Of a stretch of 59,839 nt of DNA, positions 5,016 to 41,398 are shown piece by piece. The DNA is from a virus. The notes under the pieces are model-generated. The model ran no database searches. It had not been told where the DNA came from and saw only the letters and a list, made by a program, of their open reading frames with translations. A program made the translations under genes and the position numbers. The first letter of the stretch is position 1. The number at the start of each line of letters is the position of its first letter. Where the stretch lies: IMG/VR virus record IMGVR_UViG_3300019487_000018, positions 133,459-193,297 of that record; one strand, written 5' to 3'.

Positions 5016-5647
5016 ACTTCTACAAATTGTGGGCGTATCCAATTTACACATGCGAAAACGTTCTCCTCGACACCGAACGTCAGCAGGTGGCCGACTATGT
5101 GCTACATCGATTCAAAGATCTGGACGACGACAAAATAGTCAACGTTCACGTTGCTGTTGATGGCGAGTTGGACAAAATTCCAAGCGATCTAAAGCTGTTG
5201 TATTACGCATTGTATGTGAAGTTTTCTCAATATGTCTTCGAATGCGGAAATCCTCTTGAAGAGTACTTTCTTCACAGGATTGCTATGAATAAGACTCGCG
5301 CATTCGTTCCAGGACGAGACGAAGGTGTGATTTATGAATTGCACGCGGACGATAGCGTGAATGACATTACATGCGTCTACTACGCTCAAATCGATACAGT
5401 ACACGCTAATGGTGGTAGTGCCGGCGGCGACCTGCGAATCTACAACCGAGCGGTGCTCGACACAACCGATGATACACGCGAAGCGTATGTCACTTGCAAA
5501 CCAGTTGACAATAAAGCAGTAATGTTCCCGGGCAGTTTGATTCACGAGGTTCGTCCATATTTTGGTGAGCGTCCTCGAGTTAGTCTAAACTACAAGTTTC
5601 GTCGTTACCGCAGGAACATCTCTTTGAAACCAAAGCTGGTAATATGA
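5012..5647 (+). CDS. 2OG-Fe(II) oxygenase
   Basis: HAD, GGDL, NKAVMFPGSLIHEVRP, RVSLN. Paralogous to the upstream gene; ATGA overlaps. Confidence 0.85.
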   Translation: MNFYKLWAYPIYTCENVLLDTERQQVADYVLHRFKDLDDDKIVNVHVAVDGELDKIPSDLKLLYYALYVKFSQYVFECGNPLEEYFLHRIAMNKTRAFVPGRDEGVIYELHADDSVNDITCVYYAQIDTVHANGGSAGGDLRIYNRAVLDTTDDTREAYVTCKPVDNKAVMFPGSLIHEVRPYFGERPRVSLNYKFRRYRRNISLKPKLVI

Positions 5648-6588
5648 AACCAGTCACTCTATCAATCAATCCACTGTATCTGTGCAACTTTCGGTGCAAG
5701 TTTTGTTATCTAACACCAGAACAACTTGCAGACAAGAAGAAAATCGATCATGTCCGTCTTGACCAAATGCTCTCTGAGGTCACAATGGTTACGGCAATCC
5801 AACACGTTGACTTGTACGGTGGAGAAATTGCACTGCTTTCCGATGAGTACTTTGATGATATGAAGCGGATCATCCGACAGTACTACTACAAGCCGATCAA
5901 CGTTGTCACTAACCTGTCGAGAGTTCCGAAATTTTTCATGCCACCTGACATTCAATTGTCCGTGAGTTTTGATTTCGATTGTCGCGAACGGTACGAAGAA
6001 GTGTACAGAAACATGGCAACTGTTCAGAAGCCGCTGCATGTTCTGGTTTTAGCTAGCAGGTGCTTAATCGACAAAGACGTCGACTACATGATTATGATGC
6101 TGAACACATTACAAAATGTTCGGACAGTTGAGATCAAACCGTATAGCACGAATCAAGCAAACCAACATACCGTGTCGCACGCAGACTTCGAACGATTCGT
6201 TAAACGTTGGTTGACGAGTCGGATTCCAAAACGATTTGCGTTTATCAACGAGCAGAAGATTATCGAAGCGCTTCGCGGATCGTACAACGCATTTAGTGAT
6301 GACCATGTCTATATCACCCCTAATGGCAAGTTTGCGGTGCTTGATTTCGACGAGAGCGATCACGAGAAGTTCACAGAGCTCGACCACTTTGTGGACTATG
6401 TCCGGTGGACAGAACATGAGAAACAACTAATCGGAAGCAATTCATACTGCCAAACCTGTCCATATTTCGGTCACTGTTTGACAGAACACTATCGTTGGGT
6501 GAAAGATCTCGAAAACTCGTGCAATGGTTACAGGTTCCTTTTGGATTGGTGCAATGAAAGAATGGAAAATCCGGCAGCAAATCTATGA
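5644..6588 (+). CDS. Radical SAM protein with C-terminal Cys cluster
   Basis: CNFRCKFC, YGGE, and CQTCPYFGHC...C. Confidence 0.9.
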   Translation: MKPVTLSINPLYLCNFRCKFCYLTPEQLADKKKIDHVRLDQMLSEVTMVTAIQHVDLYGGEIALLSDEYFDDMKRIIRQYYYKPINVVTNLSRVPKFFMPPDIQLSVSFDFDCRERYEEVYRNMATVQKPLHVLVLASRCLIDKDVDYMIMMLNTLQNVRTVEIKPYSTNQANQHTVSHADFERFVKRWLTSRIPKRFAFINEQKIIEALRGSYNAFSDDHVYITPNGKFAVLDFDESDHEKFTELDHFVDYVRWTEHEKQLIGSNSYCQTCPYFGHCLTEHYRWVKDLENSCNGYRFLLDWCNERMENPAANL

Positions 6589-7628: not shown

Positions 7629-9920
7629 ATGGCTGATTACATCATTAACTTCACCGACCCTATGAATGGTTCGTTCCTCATCAAACCGATGACGACGAAC
7701 GGACCAGCGTCTCCGGCAGCAGTTACACCCCTCGACCCACAAGCGACTTCAGCAAATACATCGATTGTTCTACTCGGTAAAGGGATGTTTGAATATGGCG
7801 AACGTGTGGCAGAATCGTTCGTTCATATGTTGGAACATTTCGCGTTTCCGACGCCCCCAGCATATCCGATTCAGGGTCAAATTTGGTTTGATAATGGAAC
7901 TCCTGGTCTGTTCGTCTATGACGGTGCAGTATGGAATCCAATTCTTGTTGGCAGTTTTCCGATTGCCGGCGATCTTGATATGGGTGGATTCAAGATCGAG
8001 AATCTTGGCGATCCTGATAGCGCCGACGATGCCGTTAACTTAGGATTTGCTGACACTCGATACGTGAACGTAACTGGTGATACAATGACAGGTACGTTGA
8101 CTGTGTCGTCAGCAGACATCGTTTTGACAGGAGCAGGTTCGCAAATCACATTACCAAACGCACCTGTTGCTGCTACCGATGGTGTTAATAAAGCGTTTGT
8201 TGATGCATTGACTTTGGACAGTTTGGTAGATGTTATCATCACGGTTCCTGTTCTTAACCAATTGTTGCGTTATAACGGTGTAAACTGGGTCAACGCAACA
8301 GTTCTCATTCCAAGTGTTCTTGATGATCTGTCTGATGTTGCGATCACCGCTCCTGTTGTTGGTGATGTTCTGACATTCGACGGCTTGGTGTGGATTAACC
8401 AAGCGCCAGCTGCGTTTACAGATCGATATGTAACGGCTGGTGCAATGATCGGAACAACTCTGCAATTGTCGTTCTCAACAGCTGTCCCTTCACCAACGAT
8501 CAACATTGCTGGCATTGCGCCGGACGGTCATACTCATCTTGCACCACAGGTGCTGTACAACACGAATCAGCCAGACCCAACATGGGTCGGTCCACCACCA
8601 ACATATCCGTATCCGTTCTACAACGACAGCTACCTACGCGAATTGCTCATCACGACCGCAACGGGCTATCCAAATCCACAATTTCCGTATGGCCTCAACT
8701 TGCAGACAATCATCAACACAACCGACCAGGCTCTATATCAGCTTGTGGATATTGATCGACAGGAAATTCTGCAGGGGGATGGCGCAACATCGCTGTTTAC
8801 GATGCGGGGCCAGTATTTGGTCGGTCGTAACAAAGTTAAGATTTTCAACAACGGCGTCAAACAATACGCAAGCCAGCGCGCTGTTCTCAACGTGGAGTTC
8901 GAAACACAAGTAGCACCAATTCAATCAATTAACGTTGGATCTGATACTGGTCTTGCCGACGGTACGTATTCATTTGATATCATCGTCAATGGTACATTGT
9001 TCACAGGTGTTACTGCACCAACTGTTACTGTTGCAGAGGACAGGGACGTTACGGCAGTTGATGGAACAGGAGGACCGTTAGGTCCTCTCACCACGACCGG
9101 AACAACTTGGACGATTACCGATCCACTCGGCGATTTCGCTGACACACTTGGAATAGGTACAATTTTCACTGTGACGGGAGCTGGTCCGGGTAGCGGCACC
9201 TACGTTGTTTTGACAGCAACGTGGGATGGAATTGGCGAGACAGACATCGTCATTGATCCGTCGGGTCTTGGAGTACCTGGCATGTTTACAACTATTCCAA
9301 TTGGCACAACGGTCACGCTCGGTGTCACTACACTACGCAAACCATACTACTTCCAACAACTAAAAGAAGATCTCGATGTTAGCTTTGTGGCCAATGCGAT
9401 TCCGGCGATTGTGTCATTTTACAACAGCACTCTATCGTTCGAATCAGAAGTTGTTGGAACCGGCTCGACTGTGTTTTATGTGCCCGTGGCGAATGACTTG
9501 TTTGACGAAATGCTAACAGCCGGTGTTGTAACTCCAGACTTTGTTTACTCGGGTAGTATGGTGAGTATTGACGCAGCTGACAACACTGTCAGCCCAGACG
9601 AGTTCCAAGTAATTGGTGATTACACTGGTGCCTTTCCAACTGGTGTTCGCTTCATTGTGTTCGGTTCTACAGGCAATGACAATGACGATGAATACGTCAC
9701 AGTAGCCAACGCAACTTTTGCTGCCGGTTTTACAACAATCTATGTGACCAACGGAGCGATTTCTGTCAACGAAGCAAGCGGCGCCGGTACGGGAGATATT
9801 TTCTTTGAGCGCACACTTGCATATGACGAAGTTGGTACACCGAATAACAATTCCGATCAAATTCAGTTCACTGTTGCACCAGCCACCGGTGATCTAATCG
9901 AAGTATTGATTGCACCATAA
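7629..9920 (+). CDS. Virion structural protein (tail fibre/baseplate-associated)
   Basis: N-terminal LLGKG..EYGE...LEHFA...P..GQIWFD motif seen in large-phage fibre proteins; L..L.DV.I repeats; T/G/V-rich beta modules. Confidence 0.75.
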   Translation: MADYIINFTDPMNGSFLIKPMTTNGPASPAAVTPLDPQATSANTSIVLLGKGMFEYGERVAESFVHMLEHFAFPTPPAYPIQGQIWFDNGTPGLFVYDGAVWNPILVGSFPIAGDLDMGGFKIENLGDPDSADDAVNLGFADTRYVNVTGDTMTGTLTVSSADIVLTGAGSQITLPNAPVAATDGVNKAFVDALTLDSLVDVIITVPVLNQLLRYNGVNWVNATVLIPSVLDDLSDVAITAPVVGDVLTFDGLVWINQAPAAFTDRYVTAGAMIGTTLQLSFSTAVPSPTINIAGIAPDGHTHLAPQVLYNTNQPDPTWVGPPPTYPYPFYNDSYLRELLITTATGYPNPQFPYGLNLQTIINTTDQALYQLVDIDRQEILQGDGATSLFTMRGQYLVGRNKVKIFNNGVKQYASQRAVLNVEFETQVAPIQSINVGSDTGLADGTYSFDIIVNGTLFTGVTAPTVTVAEDRDVTAVDGTGGPLGPLTTTGTTWTITDPLGDFADTLGIGTIFTVTGAGPGSGTYVVLTATWDGIGETDIVIDPSGLGVPGMFTTIPIGTTVTLGVTTLRKPYYFQQLKEDLDVSFVANAIPAIVSFYNSTLSFESEVVGTGSTVFYVPVANDLFDEMLTAGVVTPDFVYSGSMVSIDAADNTVSPDEFQVIGDYTGAFPTGVRFIVFGSTGNDNDDEYVTVANATFAAGFTTIYVTNGAISVNEASGAGTGDIFFERTLAYDEVGTPNNNSDQIQFTVAPATGDLIEVLIAP

Positions 9921-9929
9921 GGATAGGTC

Positions 9930-12900
9930 ATGACATCATCATTTGACATCATCAAAGCGGACGGTTCAACATTCACGATCTACGCGTTAGAAGGCGACGG
10001 CTCGAGCAATCTTTCACTCCCACGACAAGTACTCAGTGCGGTGCTGTCTGGTGGCGCAGGTGTAAACTACTTTGAACTTGGTGATGATCTCACGTACCGA
10101 TTTGTACCAGGGTTCACCTTCAACGTTATCATTCTTGATCCACTGTCCTTCCCACCGACCGCAAACGAAGGAACGTATACGGTCGTAACATCATCATATG
10201 TTGGGAACGTTACACGAGTTACAGTTGCTCAAACGATTCCTCGCGGATTCTTTACAATCAACGGAGTGACAATCGGTTCCCAAACATGGCGAATCAGTGG
10301 TAATCATGCTGCTGAATTTGGCGCTGGTACAAGTATCATTGTCACAAACAACTCTGGTAATGGGAACAGTGTATATACTGTTGTATCGGCAACGGTTGTT
10401 GGTCCGAATACTGAAATCGTAGTATTGCAAACAATTCCTGGTGCTTCAGCTGGTGTTGCCGTCGTACAATTTTTTGCGGCTCCTGTTTTCACACCTGCCA
10501 CAACACTCGGAATTACTGCTGGTTTGTATGATATCCGTCTTGCTATCGACGGTGGTGCTTCCTCGATATATACAGTGACCGCCACGGGCACTGACACTAT
10601 GGCGTCAATGGCTGCTCTTCTAACAACAATAACAGGTCTGACTGTTACTGTTGCAAATAATTACTTCACATTTACAAGCGGTACAACAGGTACTGGTTCG
10701 TCTGTTGCTGTCGTAACACCAACTGCTGGCATAAATCCGGACTTATTCGCTGCTATTGATATAGCAAAAACAGCAACACATACGTCCATTAGTACACAAG
10801 GCCGCGCTGCATCATCTGGTGATGGTTTACTAACTGTTAACTCCTACGACATTGTTGGCGTTGTTCCAGGTGTTGGAGGCACTTGGACTATAGCCGGCAA
10901 CACCGCATCACGATTCCCGATTGGCTCTGGATTTGCCGTTTCTGGCAACTCTGCAGGGGATGGTAACTATTCTGTGGCATCAGCAACCAACGTTGGCGCA
11001 GACACGGATATTGTTGTCACGGCAACTATTCCATTGTTGTCCGACACGACAGGTGCAGTTCTTGTTGGAAACATTCCACTTGGTCATATTCAATATCACT
11101 TGACCGTTGCCGATGCTGGCATCAACACGTCGTTCGACCTGCTTGGTAAAGGAATGCCAAACTGGGGCGCAACATTCCAAGGTGACATTGTTCGAGCTCT
11201 TGAAAACCATGCCGCTTCAACGCCACCTGCAGCACCTATGTCTGGTCAATTATGGTATGACACTGGCGCAGCAACCTTGAATCTGTTTGCATCAACGATC
11301 TATGATATTGTTGCCGTCGACACCGTAGGTCCTGTATATGTGTGGACAATTTCTGGTAACCATGCTGCTACTTTCTCGACACTTAACGCTCGATTTGCAG
11401 TGTTTGGTAACACTGGTATCAATGAAGCAAACATCGCCGTTCCGGGCACATATTCCGCTTCGTCGGTGTATCAGATTTTGTCTGCTGTAAACGTTGGTCC
11501 AAACACAGAAATTACAATCAATACAACTGTATCTCCTCCTCTTTCAAACTCGATCCCAAGCGATGCAACCGGTGACGGTAAGTTATATTTGATGAGTGAT
11601 TGGCACGAAATTGCGTTGACGGAGAATGTTCTAACGTTAGATTGGAAAAATTCTGTCCGCGCAGCAACAACAGCAGCACTGCCAGCAGTGACATACAACA
11701 ACGGACTTTCAGGTGTTGGTGCAACACTTACAGCAACCGCTAACGGTGCTCTCCCCGCACAGGACGGTGTTTCTCTTGCTTTGAACGAACGATTGTTGGT
11801 TAAGAATCAAGCAAGCGGACTGCAAAATGGTATCTATACCGTAACACAACTCGGCGATGGCGGCAATCCTTTCATTCTCACACGAGCTGTAGATGCTGAT
11901 ACAAATGCTGATGTAACAGCTGGAATGGCGATGGTTATTGAAGAGGGAGCAACATATAATGATGCAGCTTTCTTCTTGGGAACAAACAATCCAATCACCG
12001 TCGGCACAACCGCATTGATGTTTGTTCAGTTGACAGCATCAATTGCTGCGCCAGTCAATGAGATTGTTTACGGCACTGGCGTCGGTGTGACATCTGAGGC
12101 AGATTTCACGTGGGATCCGACGACAGACACCTTGATGCTTGGAGGTGTTGGTGATTTAGGCACAATTACTAACGGTGATGGTGGAACAATTGAATTCGAC
12201 GCTGGCGTGATTCGCCTAACGGGCGACAACGGCGATTTCATCGAAATTGGCGCAAGTATCAATCTTACCGGTGTTGCAGGCACAACCGGTTCAACAATCA
12301 CAATTGCAGCCGGAGATTCGTCCGTTGCTGCTGGCGGAACAGTTGCCATTGTTGGTGGTGATGCAACACTTGTTGCAGGTGGTCCTGTAACGATTACAGG
12401 TGGTACTGGTGGTACAAGTCTTGGTACCGGCACTGGTGGTGCTGTATCGATTACTGGTGGTACAGCAGGCGCTAACTTGACAAATGGTGGCGCTGTCAAT
12501 ATCCGAGGTGGTTCAGGTGGTGTAGTTGGCGTTAGTGGTGGTGGTGCTGTTAACATCACTGCGGGTGATGGTGTCGGAGCAACCGGAGGCGGCGGTGGTT
12601 CTGTCGTACTTACTGGTGGTACGCCAACCATTCTTGGTATTGGAGGTGGCGTTTTAATTCAAGGAGCACAAGGTCTTGGCCTTGGAAATGGCAGCGGTGG
12701 TGTTGTACTTGTTGGTGCTAATGGTGCTGTAGCAGGCGGTAACGGTGGCTCTATTTCGATTACAGCTGGCACAGCAACAAGTGTATTCACAGCCGGAACT
12801 CTCTCTTTGACAGCAGGCGGTGGGGGAACAACAACGGTCGGTGGTGCAGTAACAATCACTGGTGGTCCAGGCGGTACAGTGTCAGGCACTGGCGGTGCAG

Positions 12901-23874: not shown

Positions 23875-24353
23875 TCACTCTTTCCAGTTACAAGAAGGTT
23901 GTGTGCTGCACATGCACGCCAAAACAAATCAGCCATCAACGGTCCACCAATCTTCACTGACTGAGGTTTTTGCTTGAACTCGCTCCTAAACACGATTTCT
24001 GTTCCGATGAGATATTGGTACGTTAGCCGCTTGAACAATCTTCGTTCGCAGTCGAATCGCACGCGATGAATCACCGCATCGACATCACCATCATATCCTT
24101 CGGCATTCATTTTTCCGACGAGCTTGTAAGTGAGAAATGTGTCTTCTTCGTCGATTCGGTATGCATTGATATCGATGTAGTATCGAGCTGTTTCAGGACC
24201 TTTGAAACGAACCCATACAGTCGTATTGCACACGCCTTTTTCGCAGATGTTTTGTTTGTGTGCATCTTCGAGAGGCATGTCGACGATCGAATCATCTGCG
24301 AACGCAGTGGTGAATAGGAAGAGAAGACTGACGATGGCGTAGCGAAAATTCAT
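23871..24353 (-). CDS. Secreted/periplasmic hypothetical protein
   Basis: Signal peptide ending AFA; paired cysteines. Confidence 0.6.
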   Translation of the reverse strand: MNFRYAIVSLLFLFTTAFADDSIVDMPLEDAHKQNICEKGVCNTTVWVRFKGPETARYYIDINAYRIDEEDTFLTYKLVGKMNAEGYDGDVDAVIHRVRFDCERRLFKRLTYQYLIGTEIVFRSEFKQKPQSVKIGGPLMADLFWRACAAHNLLVTGKSE

Positions 24354-24392
24354 AGCTTTTCCTTCAAGAAATCAAGTTGTAGACACCAAGCG

Positions 24393-25439
24393 TTAACGTA
24401 AGCCCCCAGGAATTCCTTTTGAAACAACAGCCGTTGCTGACCAAGGATGAAGCGACTCAAGGTGTTCAGTAACAACACTGAAGTCTAGAATCTTACCCTC
24501 ATCGTACATCATGTCAAGGCCTTGATACAACAGACGTGATGCATCCTCTGTGAACAGAAGGTTTGATCCGTTAAGCTCAGCGAACGCTTGTTCATCACGC
24601 CGCTTACAGATTACAACAACTTCGGTTGGGACTTGACGACGAGCCACCTCTACAATATCTTCAATCCACACAACATGTTTGTCAGGATTAAACTGAACGG
24701 TGATTTTTCCGAGCGATCGTTGTGAGTGTCCGTTTGCAGCCTTACCGCGTTTGCGTGTTGCATGCTGCGCAAGTTCAAACGAACATGGACAGGTTGAGGA
24801 ATACAGATAGTCAACAGTCAGAAGGAATTTGTATGTGTCCCGTCCCGCTCTTAAATAAGGAGTATCCGTTACTTCTCTGTGCAATTGACCTTCCAATGTG
24901 CAGTCATAGAAAATGTATCCAAGCATCTTGTCATGGCTCAGTTCTACTCCTTCGACTGTCTTGAATGTACGACCTAACGTTTTCTCTTCGTCCGAGGCCT
25001 CGCGTCTAGTTCGGAGCGCTGGCTGCGTCCAAGGATATTTGAAACGCAACTTACAATACACGTGCTTCGATCCTTGCTTTTCTTGAAGTCTTTTAAGAAT
25101 CCCCTTCAAGCCGTCGAGTGAGAGATGATTTGCAATCTCTTCATGCATCAGGATTGGGAATCGAGACAGGTTTAATCCTTTGGCTTCTGGATTGTCCAGT
25201 GAACCATACAATGAAGCCTTTACATGTAGATTTTCGATGGAACCATCTCTGCGTAAAAACTTTATTGGAAGATCAACACCAGTCACACCAACCTTGTCCA
25301 GTCGTACCTTCGACCCTGGAATTACAGGATTGACTTGTGGGTCTGGAAGATCGCCGTCGTCTGGATAAAATTTGTCATCGTATGTAAAGTCCAAGTGCGG
25401 CATGTGTGCACTGTAATCGTTATTTCGGAATTTGGTCAT
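24393..25439 (-). CDS. folE2: GTP cyclohydrolase IB
   Basis: STCPCS, HSQRS, KRRDEQAFAE, FTEDASR and ESLH motifs. Confidence 0.9.
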   Translation of the reverse strand: MTKFRNNDYSAHMPHLDFTYDDKFYPDDGDLPDPQVNPVIPGSKVRLDKVGVTGVDLPIKFLRRDGSIENLHVKASLYGSLDNPEAKGLNLSRFPILMHEEIANHLSLDGLKGILKRLQEKQGSKHVYCKLRFKYPWTQPALRTRREASDEEKTLGRTFKTVEGVELSHDKMLGYIFYDCTLEGQLHREVTDTPYLRAGRDTYKFLLTVDYLYSSTCPCSFELAQHATRKRGKAANGHSQRSLGKITVQFNPDKHVVWIEDIVEVARRQVPTEVVVICKRRDEQAFAELNGSNLLFTEDASRLLYQGLDMMYDEGKILDFSVVTEHLESLHPWSATAVVSKGIPGGLR

Positions 25440-27154
25440 TATAACTCTCGTTGTTCATACGTTGCCAGTATTTGTGCATCTATCATTTCTGCACGCAAAT
25501 CTGCATCAAGTACATCAATGATATTCAGTCTGTTCGGCTGTGTCATCTGTGCGGTGAAATCATACATTGTGAGATCAACCATCCGTCCGTAGTGTTGGTT
25601 TACTGCAGCACGGTTGGGATCCATTACAATGGGGAATTTTCCACCTTTGACGTAGTATACAGCATCATAGCTTTGTTGAGCACGAAGACATTTCATGTAG
25701 TACTCGTTTAAGTACTGATCGAAACGGTTTTCTCGACCAAGCCAAATCACAGCATAAGCAAAGAGGTCAGCATATGTTCTTTCAGTGAACACAACACCTG
25801 TTCGTCTTTGATATTTGCGATCGTTACTTGATGTGTGTAGCACTCTTTCTGCGTCATGCTCATCTTTGTATTTTCGAGCAAGAATTTCGTTTTGGAATTT
25901 TACGACGAGATCGGGATCTTTAATGATGTCTTCAAGAGACATTCCCCACTCACTTTGAATTGACCGTGATGTTTTTCGTTCGATTATGCGATAGCCTTTG
26001 GCCTCAAGTCTTTTTAGAATTGTTGTGTTGTGCGTAACGATGTAATCGTCCGTGATGTATAAATGTTCAGGATCGTCGATTGCTATACACCACACCTCTT
26101 CTTTACCTTTGTAAGTAATGTCTGAAATCCTGCGTGTGAGCAGTAAACTTCCGTTTTTGTGTCCTTCAAAGTGAGAGGAACGACAACGATCTTTTTTTCT
26201 GGGGAGTGAAAATACACTAGAAGGATTTGGCAACTTTAGAGCAATTTCATATGCAATGAGACCACTGTGAAGCTTGTCTTTGTACTTGTACACAGGGTGT
26301 CTTTCACTAATCGTTGCTACTCCGCCGAGCGACCAAACAATGTCCTGTACGTCTCTTGCGAGTGCATAACTAGTTGTGGTAAACGTTGTAGAGGAGCCAT
26401 TACTACTCACAGTTCCGTCTGTGTCCATCAACCCTTGAAGTAATTTCAGCCTATCGTTTGGTGGTCCATTTTTATATGCATTAGGAACAAACTTTTCTGG
26501 CGACTTTTTCATCAGATCGTAGTTCTCAAATGCACGTATATACTTGTTATTATGTTTTCCCTCATGACCAAGTCGATACGAGATCGATGTACCTTGTTGA
26601 ACAAAGTTATAACCAGAATCGAGTAACTTACTGCACTCATGTAAAATATGTGTATCTGTTGTTGTAAGAAGTACAGATTCCGATGTTAAAGACCCGTCTC
26701 CAAGAAGACACCCCAACAAATAGGGAGGTATGTCATATTGATGATTATTGTCGTTCAAATATGGTGTAACCAGTGGTATTGACAGATTTGTCCCCCACTG
26801 CTTTCTTGTTTTTTGTCTCTGCATGTAAGCACTCATGCTGAGTGTGGTCATTACTTCTTGTTTCAATCGATAAAATGATTTGTTGTTTTTTTTCGTGTAT
26901 TGACCATACGAACACTTCCACAAATGATCTCCACACGCCTCTGTTTTCCCGCCATCGTGTGTGGTAATAATGTACACATCTTTCACACCTTGAGGGAAAA
27001 TTCCAATGATAGGTGCAGAATGACCATTTGGTGTAATCACTCGATCTTTACAGGTAAGCTCCCCTATACACTTCCATCCTGTTTCACATAGTACTTTCGA
27101 GTGTAGAGGTTGAGCCTTGCCTGACCCCTGTGAGCCAGAAATTGCCACCAGCAT
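25439..27154 (-). CDS. P-loop nucleotide kinase/NTPase interrupted by an intein
   Basis: The spliced product reads GSQGSGK|TT (Walker A). The C-extein has the kinase-like ERTYAD motif. Confidence 0.85.
   Translation of the reverse strand: MLVAISGSQGSGKAQPLHSKVLCETGWKCIGELTCKDRVITPNGHSAPIIGIFPQGVKDVYIITTHDGGKTEACGDHLWKCSYGQYTKKNNKSFYRLKQEVMTTLSMSAYMQRQKTRKQWGTNLSIPLVTPYLNDNNHQYDIPPYLLGCLLGDGSLTSESVLLTTTDTHILHECSKLLDSGYNFVQQGTSISYRLGHEGKHNNKYIRAFENYDLMKKSPEKFVPNAYKNGPPNDRLKLLQGLMDTDGTVSSNGSSTTFTTTSYALARDVQDIVWSLGGVATISERHPVYKYKDKLHSGLIAYEIALKLPNPSSVFSLPRKKDRCRSSHFEGHKNGSLLLTRRISDITYKGKEEVWCIAIDDPEHLYITDDYIVTHNTTILKRLEAKGYRIIERKTSRSIQSEWGMSLEDIIKDPDLVVKFQNEILARKYKDEHDAERVLHTSSNDRKYQRRTGVVFTERTYADLFAYAVIWLGRENRFDQYLNEYYMKCLRAQQSYDAVYYVKGGKFPIVMDPNRAAVNQHYGRMVDLTMYDFTAQMTQPNRLNIIDVLDADLRAEMIDAQILATYEQREL
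26027..27115 (-). mobile_element. Class-3 (Ala1, WCT) intein with LAGLIDADG homing endonuclease, 363 aa
   Basis: Starts AQPL; block B HLW; block F VWCIAI; ends VTHN|T. LAGLIDADG-like motifs LGCLLGDG and LQGLMDTDG. Confidence 0.9.
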
Positions 27155-27168
27155 TTACTCCCTCCATT

Positions 27169-27369
27169 TTATTGATTTTGTTTTAGTCGTCTTTCAAGGT
27201 CGCGAATCTCGTCGTGCATTGGTGAATTCTTTGCTTCCTTTGCCTGTCTACGAAGGTCTTCGAGGTATTCTTGTTCTGAAATGTTGATGTTGTAACCACA
27301 ATCAAAGCAGTACTCAGTCCAGTCTTGGACGTTCTGATGTGGGCAATCTAGGTATGAGTATTTTTCCAT
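27169..27369 (-). CDS. Small Cys-containing hypothetical protein
   Basis: AGGAG RBS; CPH...CFDCG. Confidence 0.6.
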   Translation of the reverse strand: MEKYSYLDCPHQNVQDWTEYCFDCGYNINISEQEYLEDLRRQAKEAKNSPMHDEIRDLERRLKQNQ

Positions 27370-27397
27370 TTTCTTCTCCTTAATAGAAGTAAATGGT

Positions 27398-27608
27398 AGA
27401 GGAGGAAAGTCGAAAAATCAACAAGTGCCTTTACAATCCTTCAAGATGGCAATTACATGCCCTTGACAACAAACAACGTTTGCTCTAGGCAGGGGTCAAC
27501 GAACAACCAACAAAGGTCTAAGTTTAAATCCCTGCAAACAATCGCAGTCCATGTTTTGTGATCTATTTTCTGCACCAGTTTGTGTGCAGCACGAAGTGTG
27601 AGTTCCAT
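27398..27608 (-). pseudogene. Deleted remnant of the 28912-29490 gene fused to the 3' part of its associated RNA
   Basis: 27608 onward encodes MELTLRAAHKLVQKI with a matching leader (CTCAACTCAAGGA). The 3' part resembles the 3' end of the 28672-28913 element. Confidence 0.7.
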
Positions 27609-27742
27609 GGATACTTTTCCTTGAGTTGAGGAGGTCTATACTACGGGGTAAAACCTAATCAGACAACTTTTTACAAACGTGAGCGTCTGAGATTGTTGAA
27701 GATCTGCTGTGTTGCTTCCCTCTTTGAAGGGACAAATTCCAT

Positions 27743-27819
27743 TGGTCGGAGTGGCAGGATTTGAACCCGCGTCTTCCACGTCCCAAACGTGGCCGTCTAC
27801 CAGACTGGCTTACACTCCG
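27743..27819 (-). tRNA. tRNA-Pro(UGG)
   Basis: Cloverleaf CGGAGTG...; anticodon arm CCACG-TTTGGGA-CGTGG; GGTTCAAATCC; encoded CCA. Confidence 0.93.
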
Positions 27820-27829
27820 ATGGTCAAGT

Positions 27830-27894
27830 AACAACCAAACGAGACCAATCGTCTGTAGGTGTTTTGCTAATGGATTTAGTCGTTACCGACTTTT
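27830..27894 (-). ncRNA. Partial copy of a candidate structured ncRNA
   Basis: Homologous to 30365-30430, with compensatory changes in its hairpins. Confidence 0.55.
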
Positions 27895-27900
27895 ATCCCT

Positions 27901-27939
27901 TTTGCCGCACCCGTGCGAGCCGGAAATAGCTACGAGCAT
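27901..27939 (-). pseudogene. 13-codon fragment of a second kinase allele (MLVAISGSHGCGK)
   Basis: 11 of 13 residues identical to the N-extein at 27154; differences mostly at third codon positions; RBS retained. Confidence 0.8.
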
Positions 27940-27948
27940 TGTTATCCT

Positions 27949-28659
27949 TTAGTCAATGTACGCGAAACGCGTCTCTAAGAGTGTTGGTCGTTGCACAACC
28001 GAGGTTAGAAATTTCAACGCTTCACCATTGCACATTTTATATCCGTATGATCCATATTTGACTGCCCGAGACAACGATGCGGCTGGAAACGTTAGTTTGT
28101 GAACTGCAAGTTTCTTATTGGCGATATCAAGCAATGTATAGTCCCCGACGATAATCGTCTCACCATCTGTTGCCAGCTGACAAATCGTGTAATCGAAACT
28201 ATCAAGTAAGTGTTCCACTGAGTCGTGGAAAAAATCACCGTGAATCAGCTGAATGTTGTACTTGTTTTTGTCTTAGGTGAAGTCAAAATTTGTAACGTGG
28301 CTAGTTTCGAGCGTTTTTGTAAACAATCGCTTGTTATCTTTTAGACGAAGAACAGGAAAAAGAACAGGAAAGATATTGTCCGCAATCTCATCCACACCTG
28401 ATCCTTCAATCATACGGTGTTGAAAGATTTCATGTTGGTCTGCATTTTTGAAGAAGATGTCGAAGTCAGTTTCACACGATTTTCCTTCAACAGCTTGCCG
28501 CAGACATCCGCCGCCAAGCCAAGGACCATTCTCCAACGAAAATTCAACAGCTGTTTGGCGTTGCAAACTACCAAGCAGATGCTCGATATGTGCAACGATG
28601 CTGGTTACCTTGTTTGGATGTAAGTGTTGAATTAGTTCGTATAGTGGATATTTGATCAT
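27949..28659 (-). pseudogene. Nucleotidyltransferase (CCA/poly(A) polymerase head-like) with one in-frame TAA
   Basis: LGGGCLR...DFDIFF, then in the same frame IQLI...SFDYTICQ. TAA at 28273-28275. Confidence 0.75.
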
Positions 28660-28671
28660 ACGAAAATCATA

Positions 28672-28913
28672 GAGGAGCGGAGTAAAAAGTTCAACAGAAC
28701 CGTGACAATCCCTCAATCCTTCAACCAGCAATACGGTCTTGCGAGCCCAATCCTTCAACCAGCAAAATAGGGTTAATTGTATGGCTCGCCTTCAATGACC
28801 AATCCATCAGCTGTATGAGGTTTAGACCTCGATCTTACGCTGAACATCTCACCAGCAAGCTGGTGAGATGACGTTGTAAGGTGGTTTGTCTCCCTTCTTA
28901 CTCGCGCCGCCTC
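28672..28913 (-). ncRNA. Candidate ~240-nt structured RNA downstream of the coiled-coil gene
   Basis: 5' GAGG..GAGTAAGAAG pairs with 3' CTTTTTACTC..CCTC; perfect hairpin CATCTCACCAG/CTGGTGAGATG; 18-nt direct repeat at 28714-28731 and 28748-28765. Confidence 0.6.
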
Positions 28914-29490
28914 AAATCAGCTTCTCGTCCGACAGAACAATAACGTGAGTCTGTGGTAGCACGAGAGTGTTCGCAAGATTCTTGTGAAGAAGCGCATCTT
29001 CGATGGTTTCTGCTTGGCGACGGTATCCAGCAATCTCATGCTCCATACGTTCACGATTGCTGATGAGCGAGAAGTTCACGACATCAGCACGATAGCTCTC
29101 ACCAGCGGCTTCTTGGGCGCGCGCGATTTGACGTTGAAGGGCTTCTGGTGTTGACACATACTGCTCACGAAGGACAGACACGAGCCGTCCCAATAGCTGA
29201 GCACGATCAACAACATCTTTGCGTTCTGAGACAAGTTGGTTGATCCCTTCGCGCTCATTGATTGCGCGAATGGTGTCGCGAATAAACGTGCGGATAGTCA
29301 TCAGATCTTCAACGCGAGCGATCTTGTCTTCGAATTCTTGCATCCGATCTTGGTACAGGTGTTCGACAACGTCGCTATCATTATCAACGTCAAACACGTT
29401 GATCGTAGCGATTGGGTTGATTTGGATTGCGTGGATTTGTTGGGTGATCTTGTCAACCAACTTGTGTGCAGCACGGAGGGTCAGTTCCAT
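28912..29490 (-). CDS. Coiled-coil protein, possibly a distant DIP1984/DUF6847-like member
   Basis: AGGAG RBS; helical heptads with the pattern LxxAxKL...IRxxIxxxNxxxGI...IEDxLxxxN. Family link is from memory of the pattern only. Confidence 0.7.
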   Translation of the reverse strand: MELTLRAAHKLVDKITQQIHAIQINPIATINVFDVDNDSDVVEHLYQDRMQEFEDKIARVEDLMTIRTFIRDTIRAINEREGINQLVSERKDVVDRAQLLGRLVSVLREQYVSTPEALQRQIARAQEAAGESYRADVVNFSLISNRERMEHEIAGYRRQAETIEDALLHKNLANTLVLPQTHVIVLSDEKLI

Positions 29491-29531
29491 GAAATGTTCT
29501 CCTTGAGTTGAGGGATTGTATCCTACAAGGG

Positions 29532-29798
29532 TCAATGAAGTTCGACAACAGCGTATCGAGTTTTTTCAAGCAACTCGTCAAACGCGGCGTTAACAGTAGT
29601 GCTGTCTAGACGGAAACCAGCTCCTTCTTGTGGTCGTCCGTCATCGTCACAAGGCACACAATACATGCCGTTTCGACCTTCCATTACTGTAAAGCCAAAC
29701 AATGCAATCAGGCGCTTTTTTGCTGTCAACAGACAATCGACGTTGTCAAGGACGAGTTGGTCCTCTTCAAAATCAAGGTTCGTTGCTAGGTACTTCAT
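29532..29798 (-). CDS. Hypothetical protein
   Basis: 88-aa ORF in the minus-strand run. Confidence 0.55.
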   Translation of the reverse strand: MKYLATNLDFEEDQLVLDNVDCLLTAKKRLIALFGFTVMEGRNGMYCVPCDDDGRPQEGAGFRLDSTTVNAAFDELLEKTRYAVVELH

Positions 29799-29819
29799 CG
29801 TGTGTTTTCTTCGTATCGC

Positions 29820-30044
29820 TCACGAAGCGTTGGTTGGTCCATTATCTTCTCGAATAATTGTTAGAGCCTGCGATTTCTGAAGATCAGGCAGAAGACCTTC
29901 AGACACTGTTAGGCGCCACGTTCCGTCGGCAAGTGGGTCGAAGTGGAGAAATTCATTCTGGATCTTTAGAATCGTAAACCTTGAGATCTCTATTGTACGA
30001 CCTGTTCCTTCAAAACGAAACGTTCGACGAACGTTATTGGCCAT
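29820..30044 (-). CDS. Hypothetical protein
   Basis: ORF starting MANNVRRTF, in the minus-strand run. Confidence 0.5.
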   Translation of the reverse strand: MANNVRRTFRFEGTGRTIEISRFTILKIQNEFLHFDPLADGTWRLTVSEGLLPDLQKSQALTIIREDNGPTNAS

Positions 30045-30179
30045 ACTTAAGTACCACACGGCACTTCGAACAAATGAAGCACCACATCTTCTTGATTAGT
30101 TCTCCAACGTGGCCACATTGGTGGCATTTGACCGTGTTTTGATCTTGCGTCACCATTTGACGCCTCTTTTGCATGAATA

Positions 30180-30256
30180 TGGTCGGCGATGGAGGATTTG
30201 AACCTCCGGCCTCTTGCTCCCAAAGCAAGCAGTCTACCAGGCTGACCTAATCGCCG
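30180..30256 (-). tRNA. tRNA-Pro(UGG)
   Basis: CGGCGAT acceptor; anticodon arm CTTGC-TTTGGGA-GCAAG; GGTTCAAATCC; CCA. Confidence 0.93.
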
Positions 30257-30261
30257 AAACG

Positions 30262-30356
30262 TTCTTGAAATTCACAGCGTGTACTGCAGCGGCTTAGGCT
30301 CCCAATCGTAGCGATCTACTTGTGCACTTTCGATCTACCTTCGCTTGTTTCAAGAG
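30262..30356 (-). ncRNA. Candidate ~95-nt structured RNA between the tRNAs
   Basis: Terminal inverted repeat TCTTGAAA/TTTCAAGA with inner AGCG/CGCT; no credible ORF. Confidence 0.35.
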
Positions 30357-30360
30357 TTTC

Positions 30361-30484
30361 AAACAACAACCAAATCAGGATCAATGATTTGTGGACGTTT
30401 TGCTTACGGATATAGCCGTTACCGACTTTTTCGTCCGTTCGCTAAGGACGTGTCTTACTTCACCCTAGGAGGTCCATTGTTGTT
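30361..30484 (-). ncRNA. Candidate ~125-nt structured RNA directly 3' of tRNA-Ala
   Basis: Closing stem AACAACAA/TTGTTGTT; TGGAC/GTCCA; CGTCC/GGACG; AGTCG-GTAA-CGGCT; CAAATCA/TGATTTG. Confidence 0.6.
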
Positions 30485-30558
30485 TGGTGGAGGATGAGAG
30501 AGTCGAACTCTCGAGTACGCCGTGCAAAGGCGTCAGTTTCCCACTAGCTTAATCCCCC
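30485..30558 (-). tRNA. tRNA-Ala(UGC)
   Basis: GGGGGAT/ATCCTCC acceptor with G3:U70; anticodon arm ACGCC-TTTGCAC-GGCGT; CCA. Confidence 0.92.
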
Positions 30559-30766
30559 AAGGTCCATATTCCAGCATGTAATGACAAATTGCACATAAGA
30601 CTACACACTTTTCAATTTCTTGCCTAAGTTTCTCAAACGCTATGAACCAGCGTGAAGAAACAGCAAATTCTCCTATTTAAGGAGAGTGTAAAGCGAATTC
30701 GGGTCTGCCGCCTCCACCAGTTAGTTTTACGAAACTAACAAACTATTTAGGGATGTTACAGAAATA

Positions 30767-31048
30767 TCATTCAAGGGACAACGGGGTATTGTCAATCTGC
30801 CACTGAGTGTACAAAACAATTACCTTGAGTTCGACGTCTTTTTGATCCAAACTCGTGTAGACTAGCACGTCGAGTTTGTCTGTCTTGTGTTTGATTCGGA
30901 AGATGATTCGTCCGAAATCATCCTCGTGCTGCTTCCACATAGAGATCGATTTGCGGCTGATATCCTTACACGCCAGGATTGTTTGCTTGCCAGGAGCAGT
31001 GTCAAGGATCGCGCCAAAGGTGAAGAAATCGCTCATTTCAAATCGCAC
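30767..31048 (-). CDS. Hypothetical protein
   Basis: ORF coupled to the macro-domain gene. Confidence 0.55.
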   Translation of the reverse strand: MRFEMSDFFTFGAILDTAPGKQTILACKDISRKSISMWKQHEDDFGRIIFRIKHKTDKLDVLVYTSLDQKDVELKVIVLYTQWQIDNTPLSLE

Positions 31049-31503
31049 ACGTAGAAGGTAACTTTCTCATATCGATTTGCAATGTCTTCAAGTAGTGGAC
31101 CTACATCAATGTCCCATATAAGTCCACCAAGACCGCAGCCAAGACGCGGCATGGATACAGGAAGTTGATGAGCATCGGCAAATGCTGCGGTACCGAATAG
31201 AGTTTGTTTGATCGCGTCGCAGTTTGCGTAACGTTTTCCATCATTGCCGTAGTACACTTGCGTGTAGAGATTTCCAACGAACAAGTTTGGGGCAACTTTG
31301 ATAAAATGGAAACTTCCGAGCAGGCTTGCTTTTTTATCGGTTTCGATGTTTTGATCAACGGCACGGTAACGGTCGTACACCTCTGGCCACTTGTTCCGGA
31401 TCGCTAGTGCAACACCAGAGCCCATTCGTCCTTGACAGTTAACGCCGTGAACAACAATTCCTGTCTCAACTGTTGTCAAATCTTTAATTACGTACTCGAT
31501 CAC
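31033..31503 (-). CDS. Macro domain protein (ADP-ribose-processing, Poa1p/DarG-like)
   Basis: HGVNCQGRMGSGVA and MPRLGCGLGGLIW motifs. Confidence 0.88.
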   Translation of the reverse strand: MIEYVIKDLTTVETGIVVHGVNCQGRMGSGVALAIRNKWPEVYDRYRAVDQNIETDKKASLLGSFHFIKVAPNLFVGNLYTQVYYGNDGKRYANCDAIKQTLFGTAAFADAHQLPVSMPRLGCGLGGLIWDIDVGPLLEDIANRYEKVTFYVCDLK

Positions 31504-31584
31504 GTTCTTTCCACCTTTCGATTCTTGCTTGAGTGTCTTTCATCACAACTGTTCCTGCTGGGTGAGCTAGTTCGCCTAGTTTCA

Positions 31585-31974
31585 TTAGCATTCAACTACA
31601 GCACCACCTTCACCGTCCTCGTTTACTTCACACGTATCAAGTTTGAACTGTTTCAACAGTTCAGTGGCAAGCATTTCACAGCTCTGGGAGCCAAACAGCA
31701 AACACTGGTACTCTTTCGAAAAATATCTCTTATGTAAAAACTTCTTCATTTGATGTGCCAATTTGATAAATTCAATGTCCCTATCATTATGATAAACGGA
31801 TTTTGTTGCTATTACAAAGAACTGATGTCTGTGCAAGTTCTTCAAATACATTACTTCATCAATATCGCAGTTTGTCCAGCAATGAAGTCCTTCTACCTGA
31901 AAGCGAACTATAATGCGAGTACTCAATGTCGTTCTATTTCTTACAAAAGCAGTTTGATTCAAATTTTGTTTCAT
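31585..31974 (-). CDS. Putative T-fold QueD/6-pyruvoyl-tetrahydropterin synthase-like protein
   Basis: H...HRH metal-ligand pattern, DRDIEF, SCEMLA and VNEDGEGGA. Confidence 0.55.
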   Translation of the reverse strand: MKQNLNQTAFVRNRTTLSTRIIVRFQVEGLHCWTNCDIDEVMYLKNLHRHQFFVIATKSVYHNDRDIEFIKLAHQMKKFLHKRYFSKEYQCLLFGSQSCEMLATELLKQFKLDTCEVNEDGEGGAVVEC

Positions 31975-32333
31975 TTTATTGATATCCTTATTGCGGCCAA
32001 CTGTGGATGGCTTCGAATTGAACTTTACAATACACTGTTGTCAAGGCGTTAGACATTGTTTCTCCCCATTATCGATTTTATATGTAAATACGATTGTACC
32101 ACTTAACACGAGGACTGACAAGTGACGAAACAACCTACTGTCCACACTCGCATCAAACCACGCAGCAACGGTACATCTTCTCATCAACGCGAAAAGAGAG
32201 TCCACGCAACAACGAAGCATTACGACTGGGTTGCAAATACCTGTCAGAAGTTAAATGTCAAGCAGTTCGTATCGTTTTGACGGTTATATGTTATCGTAAG
32301 ATTTGGAATACAAAATTTGATACCGCTTGGACC

Positions 32334-40977: not shown

Positions 40978-41344
40978 AATTACTGGCATTATTCGTCGTT
41001 CGTACATTCATCTGTACAACCATTATGTTGATGCTGCGTTGACGATCCATGATCAGATGGTGCACGAATACAATAAGCACGAATCATCTGATCCGGAACA
41101 AGCCAACAGAGACTGGCACCGCGAATGGGAACGGATTGCAGCAAAGATACCAAAAGTTGAATATTATGATATGGCTGAATTTCTTGAATATCAAGACGAG
41201 ATACCTGACGTGCTTTCGTACACGCTGTATTACTGGAAACACTCACCACACGCCGACGAATTTTTATCAGCATTCCACAACGCACACACTGTTGGCTACC
41301 AATTTTGGATCAGACGATCTGGAATGCCTTTGACGTCGCTTTGA
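40964..41344 (+). CDS. Hypothetical late protein with C-terminus formed by a captured rIIA fragment
   Basis: MKLNEI start; the last ~9 codons lie in the 83-bp repeat. Confidence 0.6.
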   Translation: MKLNEITGIIRRSYIHLYNHYVDAALTIHDQMVHEYNKHESSDPEQANRDWHREWERIAAKIPKVEYYDMAEFLEYQDEIPDVLSYTLYYWKHSPHADEFLSAFHNAHTVGYQFWIRRSGMPLTSL

Positions 41345-41398
41345 TCGTGAACGATTTCTTAACGACGTCGCCGCTGGTTTCGACAGCGGGTCGATCGA
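41316..41398. repeat. 83-bp copy of the rIIA 5' coding region (55294-55376)
   Basis: Direct repeat with 2 mismatches. Confidence 0.9.

Follow-up and report, generated by a model that had tools for sequence, protein, structure and literature searches.

We analyzed a stretch of 59,839 nucleotides (nt), here called the window, in which two adjacent units, A and B, are diverged copies of one region holding a tRNA-Pro gene, a gene referred to as MELTL and a gene, or its first codons, for a small kinase of the AAA_28 family; in unit B, the kinase gene carries an intein with a homing endonuclease domain. Our main conclusion is that this locus is probably the recombination scar of aberrant, one-sided homing of the intein between two diverged, co-infecting jumbo phages, a reading to which we assign a probability of about 70%. 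The kinase sequence of unit A ends at the codon after which that of unit B is interrupted by its intein, the two units differ as working alleles from separate lineages would, and relatives hold the region in single copy.

The window comprises bases 133459-193297 of a 193-kb viral record in IMG/VR (CheckV completeness 56%), and its kinase protein is also encoded on a 351.8-kb contig. The source is an uncultured jumbo phage, possibly T4-like, and the two sequencing runs that hold this DNA are cave metagenomes. All elements of the locus lie on the minus strand and are listed here from upstream to downstream, with lengths of open reading frames (ORFs) in amino acids (aa); L025 is a related metagenomic locus described below.

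30485-30558, minus: tRNA-Ala(UGC), single-copy, upstream of unit A (ARAGORN; Rfam tRNA, 52.1 bits)
tRNA-Ala to tRNA-Pro copy A, 228 nt, minus: non-coding stretch
30359-30484, minus: spacer element of unit A, full length, conserved and non-coding, behind tRNA-Ala; no Rfam family
30180-30256, minus: tRNA-Pro(UGG), copy A (ARAGORN; Rfam, 65.6 bits)
29532-30174, minus: three small ORFs of 46, 74 and 88 aa, unit A only (ORF listing)
28912-29490, minus: MELTL gene, copy A, full length, 192 aa, no assigned function (ORF listing)
28664-28911, minus: non-coding region of ~250 nt behind MELTL A, with two TTGAAGGATTG repeats and a promoter-like site
27949-28659, minus: nucleotidyltransferase-like gene, unit A only (PHROG 1614/18122; orthologue at L025 6001-6717)
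27901-27939, minus: kinase stub, codons 1-13 (MLVAISGSHGCGK) of an AAA_28 kinase allele that has no intein
27895-27905, minus: novel junction at 27901/27900, kinase-A sequence followed by spacer-B sequence
27824-27894, minus: spacer element, copy B, 5'-truncated by ~54 nt relative to A and L025
27743-27819, minus: tRNA-Pro(UGG), copy B (ARAGORN; Rfam, 53.6 bits)
27453-27608, minus: MELTL copy B, a 51-codon remnant (ORF listing)
27391-27444, minus: repeated promoter-like block of unit B, preceding the 66-aa ORF
27169-27369, minus: Cys/His-rich ORF of 66 aa, unit B only (ORF listing; Pfam match below threshold only)
27116-27154, minus: kinase N-extein (MLVAISGSQGSGK), shared without change by the N-terminus of P0001, an intein-free homologue
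26027-27115, minus: intein of 363 aa, assigned to class 3, with LAGLIDADG domain (Ala1 ... THN, then +1 Thr)
25439-26026, minus: C-extein of the AAA_28 kinase, 195 aa
25439-27154, minus: kinase precursor, 571 aa, with the intein at residues 14-376
24393-25439, minus: GTP cyclohydrolase FolE2 (Pfam PF02649, E 1e-50), conserved downstream neighbour of the kinase

The junction and the insertion codon

The intein starts at 27115, directly after Lys13 of the copy-B kinase, and the kinase-A sequence likewise ends at Lys13 (27901). The sole novel junction, 27901/27900, falls on the very base at which the neighbouring allele carries its intein, or no farther from it than a 6-nt microhomology allows. 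An initial annotation of the sequence had placed the junction of the duplication at the intein insertion codon, and this was borne out exactly. The stub begins with an ATG at 27939, 9 nt behind the stop of the nucleotidyltransferase gene, and the full-length kinase of L025 also lies 9 nt behind the orthologous stop. The stub was recovered by a six-frame search with the 13-residue N-extein (E 2e-4). The first kinase copy had been described as stopping after 13 codons; this holds for homology, which ends at Lys13, but the reading frame continues for five codons (RDKSR) to a TAA at 27885-27883.

Both flanks of the junction are truncated, with 13 of ~200 codons left of the kinase and ~54 nt missing from spacer B. 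Because truncated functional elements lie on both sides, the join looks like illegitimate joining rather than a modular cassette boundary. No C-terminal remnant of kinase A was found in the 193-kb record, which argues for crossover with replacement and not for insertion of a cassette. Behind the stub lies ~0.8 kb of B-type flank (27900-27116), which starts inside the truncated spacer, a non-allelic position. A MAFFT alignment that placed the stub against the first 54 nt of spacer A through a shared AACAATG was dismissed as chance, with ~40% identity outside the heptamer.

At the spacer position homologous to the junction, unit A reads AGCGAACGGA and L025 reads AGCAAGGGGA, while the junction itself reads GGCAAAAGGGA. 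In wider context, the sequence is AGCGAACGGACGAAAAAGTCGG in A and AGCAAGGGGACGAAAACGTCGG in L025, and the window junction has GGCAAA followed by AGGGATAAAAGTCGG. Judged from these sequences, the spacer of the B lineage may have read GCAAAAGGGAT and would then share a microhomology of as many as 6 nt (GCAAAA) with GGC AAA A(CN) of kinase A. With GCAAAA at 27905-27900, the exact crossover point is ambiguous by up to 6 nt.

The strongest alternative is an illegitimate crossover between two diverged co-infecting phages that involved no intein endonuclease, the match with the insertion codon being a coincidence. Phage genomes are mosaics made by illegitimate recombination, the window holds at least one further short dispersed duplicate (83 nt at 41316-41398 and 55294-55376, 97.6% identical and in the same orientation), which may be another small recombination scar, and no such stub was present at any other P-loop intein locus that we surveyed. 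Against this, the breakpoint lies at the insertion point itself; by our calculation, a breakpoint placed at random along unit A (~2.6 kb) would lie no more than 3 nt from it in ~0.3% of events. With kinase B intact, truncation of kinase A at that codon would also bring no selective advantage over truncation elsewhere. We consider this alternative unlikely. The intein and C-extein are slightly AT-richer, but composition does not separate the competing readings.

Two diverged alleles and their single-copy relatives

Comparison of the two units by BLASTN and a repeat search gave four collinear blocks with 70.5-78% identity (E 1e-13 to 4e-4). These were the spacer (30430-30359 and 27894-27824; 78%, E 5e-11), the tRNA-Pro (30257-30180 and 27820-27743; 70.5%, E 2e-8), the start of MELTL (29535-29438 and 27652-27552; 73.5%, E 1e-13) and the promoter-like block (28716-28664 and 27444-27391; 72%, E 4e-4). 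The initial annotation had reported the order non-coding element, tRNA-Pro, MELTL gene and kinase as occurring twice; the four blocks and the 13 kinase codons do recur, but of the spacer only the 3' ~70 nt is repeated, MELTL B is a remnant and the units differ in gene content.

The differences between the units are those of genes under selection. The stub and codons 1-13 of the copy-B kinase (27154-27116) agree in 11 of 13 residues and differ at 9 nt, of which 8 are third positions, as had been stated of the two kinase starts, and 1 is a second position; six codons differ purely synonymously (binomial P 0.001). MELTL B can be aligned to A for ~16-20 codons, and its first 12 codons encode the identical peptide despite 6 differences, all synonymous. 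The 25 shared codons of kinase and MELTL hold 15 differences, of which 13 are in third positions (P 3e-5); 12 of the codons differ purely synonymously. The tRNA-Pro copies differ at 23 of 77 positions, with compensatory changes in the stems; in an alignment of six sequences, 97.6% of stem cells were paired, and 13 of 21 pairs showed double changes. Since the differences are mostly synonymous and the tRNA changes compensatory, A and B appear to have evolved as working genes apart from one another before they were joined, and synonymous-dominated divergence together with the kept tRNA pairing points to purifying selection on both units until recently. The one residue of the stub that stands out is His at position 9, where Gln is invariant in 10 aligned intein-free homologues and nearly invariant in 12 intein-bearing ones; this change may reflect drift after truncation. 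Judged by the divergence in both truncated genes and in the tRNA, A and B are diverged functional alleles from separate lineages, as proposed earlier, which were joined later and are not a decayed in-place duplicate.

Metagenomes scanned for the nucleotidyltransferase yielded two relatives, L025 and L026, both with the order QueD, macro domain, small ORF, tRNA-Ala, spacer, tRNA-Pro, full-length MELTL, nucleotidyltransferase, kinase and FolE2. Their kinase (P0002) is intact, intein-free and 200 aa long. Spacer A is 79.9% identical to L025 4447-4583 over 139 nt, including the 54 nt missing from B, and MELTL A is 47% identical to the L025 ORF at 5175-5756, with weaker homologues in L009, L081 and L091. 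Three more lineages (L009, L081/82 and L091) have one tRNA-Ala, tRNA-Pro, MELTL and kinase beside FolE2 and lack the nucleotidyltransferase, which is a B-like order. The position of the tRNA-Ala matches in L025, L009, L081 and L091. Because the relatives are single-copy, the doubled state in the window is derived, and unit A is, by its sequence and order, the orthologue of the L025 arrangement with the kinase cut off. Copy A of the tRNA-Pro matches that of L025 at 97.4% identity but copy B at only 70.5%, so the B lineage would have branched off before A and L025 split; between copy B and L025, identity is 78%. Of the two single arrangements that were to be looked for in relatives, the recipient type is found in L025 and L026 and the B-like order in L009, L081/82 and L091, but the actual donor and recipient genomes were not found.

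Searches elsewhere returned little. A tBLASTn search of 50,697 isolated phage genomes with the kinase and MELTL gave no match, and in BLASTN of the region against isolated phages the tRNA-Pro was the sole match. The C-extein, MELTL A and the nucleotidyltransferase, each scanned singly against IMG/VR, had no match there, and neither did a degenerate pattern of the stub peptide.

An old tandem duplication in place within a single lineage, with later invasion of the second copy by the intein and deletion in the first, would explain why the units are adjacent and collinear. We regard it as very improbable. A dead stub should change at all codon positions, yet 8 of 9 differences are third-position, and the MELTL remnant behaves likewise. 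The B split predates the A/L025 split, yet L025 and four other relatives have one copy. The endpoint of the deletion at the insertion codon would, in addition, need chance.

The junction itself is real DNA, and an assembly error is very unlikely. Logan assembled the two runs, which come from different samples and different studies, independently, and in each run a single contig spans all of 24500-31000 (17.5 kb long at depth 38 in one, 20.6 kb at depth 11.4 in the other), with no loose ends or alternative joints at 27900. Neither contig merely repeats the assembly of the window, since each departs from it at 28275 and they disagree with each other at 30822. The longest exact match between A and B is 14 nt and the join links non-homologous positions; with exact matches no longer than this, a misjoin in the assembly graph (k=31) is not expected. 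Support across 27900 had been named as a check, and single contigs from two runs do span the junction, although these are contigs and not raw reads. The weakest alternative, a chimera of two metagenome strains joined at 27900, could draw on the metagenomic origin and 56% completeness of the record and on the use of contigs from runs of which either may be the source sample, but is less probable still, given the unbroken and mutually different assemblies of two runs, the non-homology of the joined positions and the presence of the window's own kinase protein on the 351.8-kb contig.

The predicted endonuclease and the proposed repair route

The kinase carries the Walker A motif GxxGxGK[ST] and family-wide similarity to AAA_28 (PF13521). 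It has 42 intein-free homologues of ~200 aa with AAA_28, the best of which (P0001) is 78% identical over the C-extein. The C-extein alone scores 18.7 bits, below the Pfam cut-off of 27, because the P-loop sits on the N-extein. The intein is inserted between Walker A Lys13 and Thr14, with its bounds (GK, AQP ... THN, T) fixed by P0001, which reads MLVAISGSQGSGK and then TTILK. Insertion between Lys and Thr of Walker A is the classic site of P-loop inteins (PMC5050341).

Position 1 of the intein is Ala, with no Cys, Ser or Thr nucleophile. Intein-bearing kinase homologues include P0044-P0054 (11 proteins), and across 12 of them Ala14 is invariant, as are W79, C356 and T374, which align with the Trp, Cys and Thr of the Msm DnaBi1 intein 6BS8. 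The intein ends in THN followed by T, with H375, N376 and T377 conserved. Class 3 is defined by a Trp-Cys-Thr triplet at blocks B:12, F:4 and G:5 (PMC5050341, PMC6195587), and by these residues the window intein is class 3. It shares Ala1, the W/C/T triplet and the Lys/Thr-Ser insertion with class-3 P-loop inteins of phages and actinobacteria (Tori & Perler 2011; Kelley et al. 2016, PMC5050341; 6BS8, PMC6195587). It differs from them in its host, as none of these papers lists a small AAA_28 kinase of jumbo phages encoded beside FolE2, and it has a full LAGLIDADG endonuclease, whereas Msm DnaBi1 is a mini-intein.

The endonuclease domain matches Pfam LAGLIDADG_3 (E 4.9e-12) and, by profile, the endonuclease domain of PI-SceI (E 5e-9). 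It has two LAGLIDADG motifs, LLGCLLGDGS and LLQGLMDTDGT, each with an acidic residue, and G152-D153-G154 and D244/D246-G247 are invariant in the 12 intein-bearing kinase homologues. The intein is, on these motifs, a carrier of a PI-SceI-like LAGLIDADG homing endonuclease with intact motifs and predicted activity.

Related inteins occur in PhoH, clamp-loader, helicase, RecA and terminase P-loops of many viral contigs. No intein-bearing kinase homologues were found in IMG/VR, where a profile scan gave related inteins in other P-loop hosts. The 351.8-kb contig that encodes the window's kinase also has a related P-loop intein, 39% identical, in a PhoH-like gene (P0081), and the same phage appears to carry this second P-loop intein; neither a second intein nor P0081 was found in the 193-kb record.

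We propose the following route. Phage A would have had the ancestral single order of tRNA-Ala, spacer, tRNA-Pro, MELTL, nucleotidyltransferase, intein-free kinase and FolE2, and phage B a diverged version of the region with the class-3 LAGLIDADG intein between kinase Lys13 and Thr14. During co-infection, the spliced-out intein endonuclease of B would have cut the intein-free kinase of A at the homing site. The downstream broken end would have been repaired from B, and the upstream end joined illegitimately, possibly via GCAAAA, inside the B spacer ~0.8 kb upstream of the allelic point. The upstream end would have found no homology because the flanks are only ~70-78% identical and the adjacent gene differs, being the nucleotidyltransferase in one and the 66-aa ORF in the other. 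The 3' part of the spacer, tRNA-Pro B, MELTL B, the 66-aa ORF, the N-extein, the intein and the C-extein would all have been taken from B, leaving A's 13-codon stub beside a B-type partial unit, with the interval duplicated. The body of MELTL B would have been lost later or was lacking already in the donor. Seen from the other genome, the cut end of the A genome would have been captured by B. The sequence fits copying synthesis and break-join alike.

Several points weigh against this route. Cleavage, co-infection and the mode of repair are what we infer from the sequence, and cleavage of an A-type site in particular is presumed; its left half-site differs from the B-type at 3 of 12 nt beside the cut. 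Donor and recipient are likewise reconstructions, neither parental genome having been found, and the possible microhomology is deduced from the spacers of A and L025, not from the donor. The right-hand homologous crossover is invisible, and C-exteins as diverged as the upstream blocks would hamper invasion there too. Support for the junction comes from assembled contigs and not from raw reads, and either run may be the source sample. Finally, a survey of ~60 other P-loop intein loci for N- or C-extein stubs gave no second clean example, with the window stub (E 2e-4) as positive control, so the event would be rare and the case for it rests on one locus. Aberrant homing in co-infection, as first suggested, is nonetheless supported, and all checks that were run agreed with the predictions of the model.

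Other features of the locus add to this description. The three small ORFs of unit A gave no reliable match in Pfam and PHROG searches. An in-frame TAA at 28275-28273 in the nucleotidyltransferase ORF is GAA in the Logan contigs of both runs (A>C at 28275). Since both read-derived contigs have GAA, the 236-aa gene is intact in the population, and the TAA of the window is an assembly error or a rare variant. A sigma-70-like site, TTGAAC-17-TATGAT, lies at 28694-28666 of unit A, ahead of the next gene, and the last ~53 nt of the 28664-28911 region are common to A, B and L025. TTGAAGGATTG occurs three times in the 60-kb window, each time behind a MELTL copy (28758, 28724 and 27444, minus strand). 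A hairpin, AGTCG-GTAA-CGRCT, is conserved in the spacer element (30359-30484, 27824-27894 and L025:4459-4583), which also has a TTTGGTTGTT tail; L009, L081 and L091 lack this element. Rfam searches over 24000-32000 returned tRNAs only; a wcaG match at 30652-30747 was below threshold and was dismissed. In most related viral contigs (about a dozen; loci L005-L024), an AAA_28 kinase lies directly upstream of FolE2, often near QueD, and this adjacency suggests a role in a phage 7-deazaguanine or pterin-related pathway.

Relation to known homing events and meaning

One-sided homing of the T4 td intron, with illegitimate junctions at ectopic microhomology, has been described in the laboratory (Parker et al. 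1999, summarised in PMC2988022). The likeness to our proposed route is close, in that an element-free allele is cut, one flank has no usable homology and the element is gained together with donor flank at ectopic microhomology; the setting is also a phage, and the phage of the window is possibly T4-like. The T4 work was a laboratory assay of an intron with engineered plasmid donors, whereas the window would hold a natural product involving an intein and two diverged phage genomes. The imported flank of the window, unlike the T4 case, carries a tRNA gene, and there would have been almost no resection at the cut end. The locus also resembles co-conversion and marker exclusion by phage homing endonucleases (PMC2988022), in which donor flank moves with the element. 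In ordinary co-conversion, however, the flank of the recipient is replaced by homologous exchange and nothing is duplicated, whereas in the window the recipient flank was kept and the donor flank added.

A second partial gene duplication tied to a homing endonuclease was seen in the same neighbourhood and the same phage group. Directly behind FolE2, L025 (8300-10100; also L026) has a free-standing homing endonuclease gene of 500 aa (phrog_3339, E 7e-100), with a ~95-nt copy of the FolE2 3' end on either side (~8335-8428 and ~9985-10079), the two copies being nearly identical. Both cases place a partial duplicate of the target gene beside an insert that bears a homing endonuclease. In L025, the FolE2 3' ends are nearly identical and directly flank the endonuclease gene, whereas in the window the copies have diverged by ~23%, several genes are covered by the duplicated tract and an intein houses the endonuclease. 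Endonuclease inserts flanked by a duplicated end of the target gene are also known from fungal mitochondrial genes such as rps3.

Literature searches returned no natural case in which an intein had left such a footprint of this route, with cargo brought in and an extein stub kept. The intein itself belongs to the known class-3 P-loop inteins and sits in a host protein new for them; the repair route is known from intron experiments. With somewhat less confidence than the homing reading itself, we regard the locus as probably the first natural case of illegitimate one-sided intein homing to be resolved at sequence level, in which ~0.8 kb of upstream cargo was carried into a phage too diverged for normal homing. 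This cargo would include a second, structurally intact tRNA-Pro, a promoter-like block and small ORFs.

Homing is usually seen as clean gene conversion that depends on homologous flanks, and engineered assays in T4 and lambda are the main source of knowledge on the crossing of inteins and introns between diverged genomes or to new sites. The A-type and B-type GK-T sites offer a concrete substrate pair for the new class-3 intein endonuclease, and an extein stub ending at the insertion codon is a search pattern for further scars. If our reading is true, the illegitimate route works in wild phage populations, for inteins as well as introns, and would generate gene duplications and transfer cargo such as tRNA genes. 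Intein endonucleases would then act as vehicles by which the genes beside them are moved and duplicated between unlike phages.

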